The position numbers and the translations under genes were made by a program. Under the pieces are notes generated by a model, which made no database searches, was not told the origin of the DNA, and saw only the letters and a list, made by a program, of their open reading frames with translations. Below, piece by piece: positions 14,557 to 50,622 of a stretch of 52,961 nucleotides of DNA. Source of the stretch: Candidatus Magasanikbacteria bacterium RIFOXYC2_FULL_40_16 (GTDB lineage Bacteria > Patescibacteriota > Patescibacteriia > Magasanikbacterales > UBA922). Numbering within the stretch: position 1 is the first letter of the stretch; each line of letters opens with the position of its first letter. The stretch spans positions 1 through 52,961 of the forward strand of contig MFQY01000047.1 of the NCBI GenBank assembly GCA_001783185.1, written 5' to 3'.

Positions 14557-14644
<88 letters not shown>

Positions 14645-14700: not shown

Positions 14701-16131
14701 TTATTCTAATTGATTTTTTTGATTTTGTCCACTATCGGTAATCATCAACGCCGGCAAGAGCCAGAATAAAACCGCCAGGTCGTTTTTTATATACGGCGAA
14801 TCAACAAGGCCGGTTGTAATAATAACAGTCATTGAAGCGAGTAGAAATACCGTCAAACTTATCTCTTTTGTCTTATGTCTTACAGCTTCCATAATTCCGA
14901 CACGAAAAAACCAAACTACCACCCAAGTAAAGCCAAACAAACCAAGCAGGCCGAGATTCACCCACATCGTCAAAAAGATATTATGCGGATGGTGAAAGAC
15001 CTCAATCCATTTATCAATTCTGTATGGATAAATCAATGTTTTATATGACGCCAATCCGGCGCCGGCAATCGGGTTGTCGCTTAAAAATTCCGTTGTTTCC
15101 GCCCACATATTGAGCCGGATTTGTCCGGAACGGTCTTGCATCAGGAGTTCTTGTTTGATTGGTGAAAGGCTGTTGAGGCTTAAAATGCTTACAAAGCTTG
15201 CGAGGCCTAGAATAATTGCCGGCCAACGGGTTTTTTTCCAAAAAATCAGCAATAAACCGATGCCGGCTACGACACCCACCAGCCCGCCGGTTGATTTGGC
15301 GAAAAAAATAGCGAGAGGTGAAGACAGAAGAAATAAGCTACAAGATGTAAGGATGAACCATGCATAATAGTCTTGTCGTTCTTGAGATTGCGACGTCGTC
15401 TTGAGACTCCTCGCAATGACAAAAATTTTATTTTTAATTAAGTATAATGCCAACGGAATAATTGGCGCTAAAAATAGTCCCACTCCGTTGGGAAAACCAT
15501 ACCAACCGGTGACGCGGAAAGTATTTCCATTTTCCCAAAATTTCCACGGCACCATCCAGCCGGTGAAGTGTTGGTAAATCGCCAGCAAACTTGTCGCCAG
15601 ACCGCATAGTACTAGAGCAAACAAGATTTTTTCCACCAAAGACCCCCCCTGTCCTCCTGATAGGGGGAGGGAAATTAAAATAATAAAAAGCAAAACCGGT
15701 TCAATATAAAATGCTTTCCATTCGCCCAGCGCGGCGCGAGTGTCAATCGAAGTGAATATGGATATAGTGGCGGCGGAAAGAAAGAGAGTGATAGCGAGGA
15801 ATAGAGAGGGGTATTTTTTTATTTGGGAGATAAGGGTGGTGATAGGAGATAAGAGATAAGAGATAAATTGTTTATATGTTTGTATGTTTAAATGCTGTGC
15901 CCCGCACCGAGCTCTGCTCTGGTGCTGGGGTTTGTATGTTTTTATTACCCAAGTAATAAAAACCACCCAAATCATTATTTCTAAAAGAGTGCTTGGCAAT
16001 CCGGCAAATTTAAAGCGTATCAAATAACTCGGCAAAAGCAGAAAAATAAAAAATAAGCCCAAATCCAATTTGCGCCAAGTTAAAAAAGTGAAAAACGCGA
16101 TAAATAATCCGATTAAGGCTTGGTCTAGCAT
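14701..16131 (-). CDS. O-antigen ligase/polymerase-like (Wzy_C family) membrane protein
   Basis: 476 aa, polytopic. HHPHNIFLTMWVNLGLLGLFGF matches the O-antigen-ligase signature region. It contains three hydrophilic palindrome-encoded segments (see findings). Confidence 0.8.
   Translation of the reverse strand: MLDQALIGLFIAFFTFLTWRKLDLGLFFIFLLLPSYLIRFKFAGLPSTLLEIMIWVVFITWVIKTYKPQHQSRARCGAQHLNIQTYKQFISYLLSPITTLISQIKKYPSLFLAITLFLSAATISIFTSIDTRAALGEWKAFYIEPVLLFIILISLPLSGGQGGSLVEKILFALVLCGLATSLLAIYQHFTGWMVPWKFWENGNTFRVTGWYGFPNGVGLFLAPIIPLALYLIKNKIFVIARSLKTTSQSQERQDYYAWFILTSCSLFLLSSPLAIFFAKSTGGLVGVVAGIGLLLIFWKKTRWPAIILGLASFVSILSLNSLSPIKQELLMQDRSGQIRLNMWAETTEFLSDNPIAGAGLASYKTLIYPYRIDKWIEVFHHPHNIFLTMWVNLGLLGLFGFTWVVVWFFRVGIMEAVRHKTKEISLTVFLLASMTVIITTGLVDSPYIKNDLAVLFWLLPALMITDSGQNQKNQLE
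15387..15425. repeat. Family-B hairpin repeat lying in frame inside a CDS
   Basis: GATTGCGACGTCGTCTTGAGACTCCTCGCAATGACA also occurs intergenically at about 22436-22475 and, reverse-complemented, at 50498-50535. A diverged copy lies at 19039-19065. Confidence 0.7.
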
Positions 16132-22180: not shown

Positions 22181-22720
22181 TCATCCTGAATCCCCGTTTT
22201 CACGAGGACAGGCTCTGTGAGCCCGACGCAGGAGGGCGAGCATGTGAGGAAACCCGCCGATTTAATAATTTAAGACTTTAACTCGTAGCGAGTTTATGTA
22301 AATTCTTAACTAAATTTAACTAAAAAATAAACTTTATTTATGTCTGTCATTACGAGCCCCGACTAGGTTGGAGTGTAGTCTCGATTTCGCCTCAGCGAAA
22401 TCGAGATAATCTCGTAAATTTAAGCTTAAACCAACGGGATTGCGACGTCGTCTTGAGACTCCTCGGTTGACAGAGTAAAAACTCGCTATGAGTTCCTTGT
22501 GTGAATAAGATACTCTTTTTAAAAAAGGGTGTCAACCCCGTCACCATTCTGAAAATGTGCATAAATTACCGAAGCATAAAGACGAAGTCGCCTCACGGCT
22601 TTGTCTTTGTATTATCCATAAATTGTGCCAGAAAGGTGACGGGGTCAAATTATTATGAGTAACTCGTAATCCGTAATCCGTCCCGATGTAAAATCGGGAT
22701 AAGTGTTCCCTTATAACTAG
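22181..22720. repeat. Dense array of unrelated hairpin repeat modules (families A, B, C, D and others)
   Basis: It contains TGTCATCCTGAATCCCCGTTTTCACGAGGACAGG, TCTCGATTTCGC-CTCA-GCGAAATCGAGA and GGGATTGCGACGTCGTCTTGAGACTCCTCGG. It also contains a 109-nt element with 10-bp perfect terminal inverted repeats (22536-22644), TAACTCGTAATCCGTAATCCG, and TCCCGATGTAAAATCGGGATAAGTGTTCCCTTAT. Confidence 0.65.
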
Positions 22721-24046: not shown

Positions 24047-26602
24047 TTAGGTCAATTTTTCTTCATCTTCTTCCGTTTCAGCTTTTTCTTTCCCGACACT
24101 GGTCGGGATTTCGTCCCGATGTAAAATCGGGATAAGTGTTTCCTTATCTGTGGACTCAACAACTTCTTCTGATACGGTTTCGTCCGCATCTTCTTCTATC
24201 TCTTCCCCTTTATCCTCTTCTTCGCTAGTAGCCGGGATGACGGTTTCCTCATCTTTCCCGACATTGGTCGGGATTTCGTCTTCGGGTTCAACATCAACGT
24301 CATCGCTGTATTCTTCCACATCCACTTCTTCGCCTAGGTCGTAAATTAAAGATTTTTTACCGTGCATTGATTCGGTCATTTTCATATGCGCTTCGGCATT
24401 AAGTTCTTCTTCGGTAATCAATATCTCTCTTGGTTTGGCTCCGTCCGCAGGGCCGATAATGCCGGCTTCTTCAAGTTCATCAAGAATACGGGCGGCGCGC
24501 GCGTAGCCGATTTTTAATTTTCTTTGTAAATATGAAGCGCTGGCTTTTCCGGCTTGCACCACCAATCTTTTTGATTCTTCAAAAAATTTGTCGCTATCAT
24601 CGTCTGAGCCGTCAAACACATTAATGGCGCTACCGGATTCATTTTGCTTTAAGATTTTTTCGTCATATTCAACATATTCGCCTTTTTGCAGATATTTTAC
24701 GACATTTTTTAAATCATCTTCCGACAAAAACGCGCCCTGAATACGAACCGGCTTTGACAGTTCATTATTTAAGTAAAGCATATCTCCGCGACCAAGTAAT
24801 TTTTCCGCGCCGGATGTGTCAAGAATTGTTCTTGAGTCTATTATTGACGGGAGGGAGAAGGCGATACGACCGGGGATGTTTGCTTTCATCAGTCCGGTGA
24901 TTACATCCACGCTTGGACGCTGGGTCGCGAGAACAAGGTGGATTCCGACCGCGCGCGCCATTTGCGCCAGTCTAATAATCCCCGCTTCTATTTCACCGGC
25001 GGCGGTCGCCATCAAATCGGCCAGTTCATCCACGACAAAAACCAAGTGGGGGATTTTATCGTTTGGGTGTTTGCTGTTGTATGAATCCAAATCACGACTT
25101 TTGTCCTGCGATAGAATTTCAAATCGGCGGTCCATTTCCGCAGTGGTCCATTTGAGCGCTTTGATGGTGTCGGCGGTGTTGGTGATAACCGGAGTCAGCA
25201 AGTGAGGGATGCCGTTATATAACGTCAATTCCACTCGTTTGGGGTCAACCATAAATATACGGAGCGTTTCGGCGGTATTTTGATATAAAAGGCTGGTCAA
25301 AATCGTGTTTACGCAAACGGTTTTTCCACTGCCGGTGGAGCCGGCGATTAACAAATGAGGCATACGAGGCAGATCGGCAAACCAAACTTTTCCGGCGACA
25401 TCTTTGCCGAGGGCAACCATCATATTGTGTTTTCTGTTTCTGTATTCGTCGCTTTCAAATAATTCTTTGAAAGTGATGATGGCGGTTTTTTCGTTCGGTA
25501 CTTCAATCCCGACCAAAGATTTGCCCGGAATCGGCGCTTCAATTCTGATTGGGTGGGCGGCCAGGGCGAGAGACAAATCGTTTGATAAAGCAATGATGCG
25601 GGACAGCTTCATACCCTTCTTCGGTTTGAGAGTGTAGCGGGTGACAGTCGGTCCAACGCTGGATTCTCCCATATCAACATCAATGCCAAATTCTTGCAGG
25701 GTTTCTCTGATTATTTCAGTATTGGCTTTTATGTCCCCACTGGTTGGTTTACTTCTTTTGCTGGTAAGCAAATCCAATTTTGGAGTCGGCTTAATCACGG
25801 TTTTTTGTGGCCAGGCTTTTTCCAATCCGAGTGTTTTTCCCGGTTTTAAATCCAACAGATTGCCATTTTCAAATTTTTTGGCGTCGTCTTCGTCATCATC
25901 ATCTCCGCCGATTTTTCGGCTGGTAATTTTTAGGCGATAGTCTTCGTCATCATCTTCAGATTCATTTTCTTCATCGGTTTTTTCTTCTTCGCCGTCTTCA
26001 TAATCATCGTCAGGTTGTTCGTCGGGCGCGTTTTTGTCTTTTTTAGAAACTTCGTTGATTATTTTTATCGCGCTTTTTCCGAAGACGCCAAAACTGGAAA
26101 ATATTTTTTTATTTATCACGAGCAGGTGCACAATCAAAGTGTTGAACATCAAAAGAAGCGATACCATTGCCATCGCCGTCAAAACAACCCAGGCCGCGAT
26201 TGAACCTAAATAAGTTTTTATCGGCCAGGCTGTCATCCCGAACACTCCGCCCCCATGGCCGAGAATCGCCTGCGCCCACATATTGGCCGGGGTGAAACCC
26301 ATATGGAATAATCCGGACATACTCAAGAAAAAAAGCGCGGCGCCGATTCCATGAGTGGGTTTGTAATTGTAGTCGCTGTCTTTAATTAAAAACCAGGCGA
26401 TGACAAGAATTACGAACGGAACGGCGTATCTGATTGAGCCGAATAAAAAACTTAATACCCCTTTGTTTAAGATGTAGCCGAGCGGGCCGGCTTGATCAAA
26501 AAAACTTAAAATTATTATTATTGCCACCACCGCCAAAACTATGGCTATGATTCCTTTGGAAAGGATGGGGTCAAATGACGGTTGTCTGCTTCTTCTGCCC
26601 AT
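24047..26602 (-). CDS. ftsK: DNA translocase FtsK/SpoIIIE with an extra acidic C-terminal tail
   Basis: N-terminal TM domain, acidic linker, Walker A GSTGSGKTV, Walker B VVDELADL and gamma winged helix (SYLQRKLKIGYARAARILDELEEAGIIGP). About 120 further residues follow. Confidence 0.92.
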   Translation of the reverse strand: MGRRSRQPSFDPILSKGIIAIVLAVVAIIIILSFFDQAGPLGYILNKGVLSFLFGSIRYAVPFVILVIAWFLIKDSDYNYKPTHGIGAALFFLSMSGLFHMGFTPANMWAQAILGHGGGVFGMTAWPIKTYLGSIAAWVVLTAMAMVSLLLMFNTLIVHLLVINKKIFSSFGVFGKSAIKIINEVSKKDKNAPDEQPDDDYEDGEEEKTDEENESEDDDEDYRLKITSRKIGGDDDDEDDAKKFENGNLLDLKPGKTLGLEKAWPQKTVIKPTPKLDLLTSKRSKPTSGDIKANTEIIRETLQEFGIDVDMGESSVGPTVTRYTLKPKKGMKLSRIIALSNDLSLALAAHPIRIEAPIPGKSLVGIEVPNEKTAIITFKELFESDEYRNRKHNMMVALGKDVAGKVWFADLPRMPHLLIAGSTGSGKTVCVNTILTSLLYQNTAETLRIFMVDPKRVELTLYNGIPHLLTPVITNTADTIKALKWTTAEMDRRFEILSQDKSRDLDSYNSKHPNDKIPHLVFVVDELADLMATAAGEIEAGIIRLAQMARAVGIHLVLATQRPSVDVITGLMKANIPGRIAFSLPSIIDSRTILDTSGAEKLLGRGDMLYLNNELSKPVRIQGAFLSEDDLKNVVKYLQKGEYVEYDEKILKQNESGSAINVFDGSDDDSDKFFEESKRLVVQAGKASASYLQRKLKIGYARAARILDELEEAGIIGPADGAKPREILITEEELNAEAHMKMTESMHGKKSLIYDLGEEVDVEEYSDDVDVEPEDEIPTNVGKDEETVIPATSEEEDKGEEIEEDADETVSEEVVESTDKETLIPILHRDEIPTSVGKEKAETEEDEEKLT
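24091..24147. repeat. Family-A hairpin units lying inside the ftsK 3' coding tail
   Basis: TCCCGACACTGGTCGGGA (24091-24108) and TCCCGATGTAAAATCGGGATAAGTGTTTCCTTAT (24114-24147). A further TCCCGACATTGGTCGGGA lies at 24256-24273. Confidence 0.7.
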
Positions 26603-50497: not shown

Positions 50498-50622
50498 TGT
50501 CATTGCGAGGAGTCCCAAGACGACGTCGCAATCCCGTCTTGTCATTCCCGTGAAAGCGGGAATCCAGTAATTTAAAATCTAATGCCTAAAACCTAATCCC
50601 TAAATAATCTAAATAAGTCATT
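50498..50622. repeat. Family-B unit followed by the left copy of an about 84-bp direct repeat (family-C hairpin plus CCTAA word tail)
   Basis: TGTCATTGCGAGGAGTCCCAAGACGACGTCGCAATCCC is followed by TTGTCATTCCCGTGAAAGCGGGAATCCAGTAATTTAAAATCTAATGCCTAAAACCTAATCCCTAAATAATCTAAATAAGTCATT (50539-50622). Confidence 0.65.

Follow-up and report, generated by a model that had tools for sequence, protein, structure and literature searches.

The Wzy_C/WaaL-type gene at 14701..16131 (-) of the window, the whole 52,961-nt stretch of Candidatus Magasanikbacteria DNA that was analysed, very probably harbours small hairpin repeats that settled in frame in cytoplasmic loops of its product as near-neutral passengers. 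A sequence-only reading of the window had described three hydrophilic segments encoded by palindromic DNA, all keeping the frame, and had placed further copies of the unit in the first segment between genes near 22436 and 50498. These observations were borne out. Hairpins are found at segments 1 and 3 and a CCCCCT..AGGGGG sequence is present at segment 2, the reading frame is open over 476 aa, the two intergenic copies were located, and the coordinates that had been given were right to within a few bases. The proposed explanation is that several GC-rich hairpin families (25-64 nt), together with short word repeats, would multiply mainly between genes, and that copies would now and then land in coding sequence. 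The surviving copies would be those that have a length divisible by three, are free of stop codons in the frame that is read, and lie at a structurally permissive site. In a Wzy_C/WaaL-type ligase the permissive sites would be the short cytoplasmic inter-helix loops, across the membrane from the conserved catalytic loops of the periplasmic side. Copying would be carried out by an enzyme acting in trans or by a replication/recombination process. Judged from the open frame, the inserts would be translated as an extra hydrophilic, partly disordered loop, and we infer that they are neutral or nearly so and are not functional modules.

The product of the host gene belongs to the Wzy_C / WaaL family by domain and by fold. 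The intact 476-aa ORF matches Pfam Wzy_C (PF04932) with an E-value of 7e-21 and 75.1 bits, compared with a gathering cut-off of 31.7. The protein has 498 homologs, and the best of them are Candidatus Magasanikbacteria (Patescibacteria/CPR) proteins of the O-antigen-ligase family. The closest homologs are 68% identical, the typical homolog is ~434 aa long, and the window protein exceeds its orthologs by ~40 residues; the ortholog alignment shows that all family-invariant residues are retained. A sequence-profile search of the PDB with the protein gave no match, and a Foldseek fold search of the PDB gave WaaL as the sole significant match (7tpg_B, E 9e-5, probability 1.00, TM 0.54/0.62). The AlphaFold model of the protein was made from a 28-sequence alignment and has a pTM of 0.86. 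The protein and WaaL (PDB 7TPG) have in common the Wzy_C domain, a multi-helix fold, and a large periplasmic loop bearing invariant His residues, which is placed here by the model; however, the two are only 12% identical and the CPR host has no outer membrane. The ligase role is a prediction, for which the one indication from gene context is the Polysacc_synt flippase-like gene that neighbours the ligase gene on its upstream side, a gene order that is the same in the two closest relatives, L001 and L002. The source genome (G000) is a 970-kb MAG of 65 contigs with a GC content of 40.6% and a completeness of 86%. A tRNA gene (14560-14644, (-)) lies directly downstream of the ligase gene and was the single match in an Rfam scan of the window at gathering thresholds. 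A promoter/terminator scan gave no signal at segments 1, 2, and 3.

At the nucleotide level the ligase gene is a mosaic when 14701-16131 is aligned with L002:2302-3696 and L001:6001-7377. Its identity to L002 is 90-100% in alignment columns 101-230 and 331-390, including ~150 nt without any difference, and the first 60 codons are 58-67% identical to L002 and 78-88% identical to L001. The genes that flank it are just 70-78% identical to L002. The pattern resembles patchwise recombination or gene conversion between lineages, the breakpoints being close to the variable loops.

The membrane topology was predicted from the AlphaFold model and the positive-inside rule. Helices were counted outward from the conserved loop 318-384, which contains the invariant FHHPHN sequence and which, from what is known of WaaL, we take to be periplasmic. 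Segments 3, 2, and 1 are hosted by loop A (67-105), loop B (155-164), and loop C (245-248 plus helix extensions), respectively. All three loops are predicted to be cytoplasmic and to lie opposite the conserved periplasmic catalytic face, and the K/R excess agrees with this placement, loop A having 7 K/R against 0 D/E and loop C 5 against 2. The model features pLDDT values below 50 at residues 68-81 and 159-162. Segment 1 falls within loop C, which joins TM7 to TM8, and in the model it extends the helical hairpin that these two helices form.

Segment 1 (15386..15421, (-)) is an exact 36-nt (12-codon) family-B hairpin unit, GATTGCGACGTCGTCTTGAGACTCCTCGCAATGACA, which is read as VIARSLKTTSQS at aa 238-249 (V238-S249). 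None of 200 shuffles is as stable as its hairpin (z = -3.3). Repeat searches located two further copies on the (+) strand of the window, both of them intergenic by our own gene calls. The copy at 50498..50533 has 1 mismatch, adjoins a second hairpin module, and is a 36-mer match of a kind that occurs in 0 of 100 shuffles; the copy at 22438..22465, in the upstream spacer of recA, is truncated and matches at 28/28 nt. Genome-wide, family B has 17 copies within 6 mismatches and 11 within 3 mismatches, and 5 copies are identical, including the copy in the ligase gene. Not one of the 106 other genomes from the GTDB family of the source genome, 2 of which belong to its genus, has a copy of the unit within 3 mismatches. 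The presence of identical copies in the source genome and of none in the 106 family genomes indicates that family B is young and that the insertion of segment 1 is recent; segment 1 is probably a fresh insertion of a family-B unit. The diverged family-B copies feature 3 base pairs that are changed on both sides, and the covariation score is attained by 0 of 500 shuffles. The wider set of TTGCGA..TCGCAA hairpins, to which family B belongs, numbers 44 in the genome, and 37 of these are intergenic, in a genome that is ~17% non-coding. An AATGACA tail is common to the TCGCAA and CGGGAA hairpin families, where it is 2-4 times commoner than control hexamers. Separately, a conserved tail, (T/A)TGACAGAGTAAAAACTCGCTATGAGTT, comes after many intergenic family-B copies (22463-22495; C13:9398, C43:5628, C37:688); it resembles a -35/-10 pair, but its spacer is just 14 nt.

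Segment 2 (15631..15669, (-)) is a decayed CCCCC..GGGGG hairpin with its core at 15645-15667, and it is read as LPLSGGQGGSLVE at aa 155-167. Taken alone, its CCCCCT..AGGGGG is no stabler than dinucleotide shuffles (z = +0.8 and -1.2). The segment has a 17-nt exact match to an intergenic repeat, C54:5522-5538 (E 0.002), and resembles the CTCCCCCTGATAGGGGGAG copies at C10, which is intergenic, and at C40, which lies within a gene. Hairpins of the type CCCCC(N3-22)GGGGG number 100 in the source genome, 89 of them intergenic, compared with 9 for the mirror form GGGGG..CCCCC. This asymmetry is independent of strand, which indicates specific element families and not a general preference for GC hairpins. 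In the codon alignment, segment 2 is common at the DNA level to the window gene, L001, and L002 only. L002 retains the intact hairpin CTCCCCCTATCAGGGGGA, and the window gene has a G -> A change there. We read segment 2 as a probable older insertion in the common ancestor of the window lineage, L001, and L002 that is now decaying. The ortholog P0015 has an unrelated hairpin at the same loop.

Segment 3 (15875..15938, (-)) is a 64-nt element with a GC-rich hairpin core, CCCCGCACCGAGCTCTGCTCTGGTGCTGGGG, at 15897-15931, and it is read as PQHQSRARCGAQHL. The core has a z of -5.4 and 0 of 200 shuffles are as stable. Over its 64 nt the element has 87.5% identity to C62:1246-1309, and it belongs to a family with ~6 copies in the genome by BLAST. 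Four further copies have compensatory stems, in which GCACC/GGTGC becomes GTACC/GGTAC and GAGC/GCTC becomes AAGC/GCTT. The hairpin is flanked by a AAACATACAAA direct repeat that has a similar form around the C62 copy, and this repeat may be part of the element itself. Tandem Repeats Finder located two word repeats in the same loop, both on the (-) strand: an 8-nt word (TGTTTATA x3.2) at 15869..15894, which is read as NIQTYKQ, and a 7-nt word (GATAAGA x3.7, 94% matches) at 15841..15866, which is read as FISYLLS. The 8-nt repeat was not found in the orthologs; at the site of the 7-nt repeat, other word repeats are present in L001 and L002. The insert in loop A is composite, comprising a hairpin and non-palindromic 7- and 8-nt word repeats, which together amount to ~27 extra codons, and loop A is 33 aa in the window protein, compared with a median of 6 and a next longest of 23 among 74 orthologs.

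These word repeats bear on the possibility that the segments originated in place, where slippage and template switching would make word repeats and palindromes locally in low-constraint AT-rich loops, with no arriving element. The 7- and 8-nt repeats in loop A and the differing ones in L001 and L002 look like slippage products, the hairpin of segment 2 does not stand out statistically, and no transposase was found. The Y1/RAYT transposase (PF01797) gave 0 matches in the 86%-complete genome in a search to which control genomes responded, no TnpB or DDE_Tnp_1 transposases were found in the genome, and a single rve-type gene (C15) has no unit matches nearby and no link to the units. An origin in place is nevertheless unlikely as an account of the segments, since segment 1 is identical to four distant copies, segment 3 shares its 64 nt with the C62 copy at the identity given above, and segment 2 shares its 17 exact nucleotides with an intergenic repeat. 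Independent local origin cannot account for such identity between distant copies, and local origin may hold for the word repeats only.

A census of the source genome combined self-BLAST with rough gene calls from codon usage (848 genes, 83% coding), and the split between coding and intergenic copies depends on these calls. Repeat intervals with at least 4 copies number 522, of which 382 are intergenic, 76 are at gene edges, and 64 are inside genes. Relative to a block-shuffled control, perfect hairpins with stems of at least 7 bp are enriched 9-fold in intergenic DNA and 1.8-fold within genes. Hairpin copies are also found in frame in three hosts that were confirmed by Pfam: TsaD (C61:21752-21791), the N-terminus of MnmA (C5:14295-14323), and a Mur ligase (C29:8097-8221), where a diverged family-B unit is read as SVIPRSLKATSES and is followed by a second repeat. 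The family-B unit in the Mur ligase is read in the same frame as that in the ligase gene. Family B has ~2 bona fide coding copies, both read as VI[AP]RSLK[TA]TS[QE]S, and 5 of the 6 frames of the unit are open. Elsewhere in the window, a 16-copy repeat at 24111-24147 lies close to the C-terminal end of the 851-aa gene 24047-26602 (-) and is read as DKETLIPILHRDE; this is probably the ftsK case mentioned in the sequence-only reading.

Orthologs were compared in an alignment of 28 sequences and in an alignment of 74 sequences built from DNA loci, and segments 1 and 3 are present in none of the orthologs of either. The suggestions that the segments are lineage-specific insertions, that they lie in loops, and that repeat elements insert into or are tolerated by coding sequence all agree with the present results: segment 2 is restricted to the two closest relatives, no distant ortholog in the 28- and 74-sequence alignments conserves the segments, the confident WaaL-like model places them at loops with low pLDDT stretches, and most copies of the dispersed families lie between genes, a minority being in frame in coding sequence. 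In the window protein loop C has 28 aa, compared with an ortholog median of 17. Among the 74 orthologs, long indels are confined to loops A-D and the termini, and the periplasmic loops are gap-free except for one 3-residue indel. Loops A-D are K/R-rich and, by helix parity from the HHPHN loop of the model, would all be cytoplasmic. The most stable 42-nt window falls within lineage-specific insert residues in 9 of the 74 genes, compared with an expected 0.86 (P = 3e-7). The hairpins of the orthologs vary in sequence and in loop, and most orthologs have none. L014 features TTCCCCCCCTTATAAGGGGGGGAA in loop B, and hairpins of the CCCAAGGC.GA.CCGCCTTGGG type are found in loop B of L012 and in loop D of L031 and L027. 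Close to its C-terminus (L002:3600-3696), L002 has a 12-codon hairpin insert of its own (SSPLERGSREGV, TCCCCCTTAGAAAGGGGGA), which is without a counterpart in the window gene. The CCAAGGCGGAYCCGCCTTGG hairpin family is dispersed in 45 of the 106 related genomes, where it reaches ~24 copies per genome, and G000 has none. The differences between the hairpins of the orthologs indicate that each genome's own families strike the same permissive loops of the Wzy_C protein. Exact 27- and 29-mers from the ligase gene had no match in two metagenome scans.

The recurrence of inserts in the same loops of orthologs, the position of each insert after a membrane helix, and the compensatory changes that keep the stems paired in diverged copies could also be explained if the hairpins were functional elements, kept to pause translation after a membrane helix, to stabilise the mRNA, or to bind a protein, with the added peptide a by-product or a useful cytoplasmic loop. 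This is very unlikely. The inserts vary in sequence, family, and loop between orthologs, most of which are without them, segment 2 is decaying in G000, and family B is limited to one genome. Additionally, a hairpin that serves only the copying of the element itself would lead one to expect compensatory change just as much. Least probable of all, and scarcely credible, is a pseudogene, a pair of genes, or a misjoined contig marked by the repeats, to which ~90 nt of loop A that resemble a typical intergenic spacer of G000, the low codon-usage score of the ligase gene (19.6), and the 65-contig state of the MAG could be said to point. The 476 codons are open and in the same frame on either side of each insert, and by our estimate a random insert of ~100 nt would be in frame and stop-free in ~3% of cases. 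The protein retains every family-invariant residue, its model is confident, and the gene order with the flippase-like gene matches that in L001 and L002; a pseudogene or split gene is rejected on these grounds. An assembly artefact is rejected since each unit is shorter than a sequencing read and cannot cause a misjoin.

The settling of hairpin repeats in frame as near-neutral passengers has its closest known parallel in the Rickettsia palindromic elements (RPE), although the comparison is one of behaviour and not of sequence, the host phylum here being Patescibacteria/CPR (Magasanikbacteria). According to the MITE review PMC10969869, RPE (Ogata et al. 2000, 2002) are palindromic repeats of ~100-150 bp that are found between genes and in frame in housekeeping genes and that encode conserved peptide modules. 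The two systems share dispersed hairpin repeats that are intergenic and also in frame in unrelated, intact housekeeping genes, and a small, reduced host genome. In both, the insert would add a peptide at a loop compatible with the fold, the loop being taken here from the model and translation from the open frame. In contrast to RPE, the units here are 25-64 nt long (12 codons for family B), which is 3-5 times smaller, and belong to many unrelated hairpin families mixed with short word repeats.

REP, REPIN, and BIME sequences are imperfect palindromes of 20-40 nt that occur in tens of copies, are overwhelmingly extragenic, and are mobilised by RAYT (Y1 HUH) transposases; in REPs a foot, GTAG or CGTC, adjoins the hairpin. 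To our knowledge, classical REPs have no in-frame coding copies. The units resemble REP/REPIN sequences in being short, many-copied, mostly extragenic palindromes whose stem pairing is kept by compensatory change, and possibly in the short flank common to different hairpins, which is AATGACA here and GTAG or CGTC in REPs. However, no Y1 transposase was detected in the 86%-complete genome, a GTAG foot is absent, and CGTC is found inside the unit and not at the foot. MITEs with in-frame fusions are described in PMC10969869, where the examples are intragenic ERIC and Anabaena MITEs. The units are likewise small, non-autonomous repeats that are tolerated inside ORFs; unlike MITEs, they have no terminal inverted repeats other than the hairpin, no parent IS whose ends match theirs, and no target-site duplication demonstrable with closest relatives that are 68% identical. 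The units depart on a defining feature both from the REP/RAYT system and from MITEs. Literature searches for in-frame palindromic repeats in CPR found no description.

A wider proposal, which is possible and on the whole doubtful, is that the units represent a hitherto undescribed class of ultra-small mobile DNA in CPR, composed of a variable hairpin and a short fixed tail (25-36 nt) and copied by an enzyme or process other than the known Y1, TnpB, and DDE transposases. This class would regularly supply essential proteins with new cytoplasmic loop sequence, with the same loops of a protein family hit independently across many lineages.

The in-frame hairpin units mean that RPE-like behaviour, in which ribosomes would translate selfish hairpin DNA as part of a protein, is not confined to Rickettsia. 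It would also operate in the ultra-small genomes of CPR, where the units are far smaller and no transposase is recognisable. For the Wzy_C family, the ortholog series constitutes a natural map of the insertion-tolerant loops in a WaaL-type ligase, all of which are cytoplasmic in the model. For CPR proteins in general, hairpin-derived peptides such as VIARSLKTTSQS, PLSGG, and PKADPP would inflate loop lengths and create spurious small ORFs, and they can mislead both alignment and annotation.
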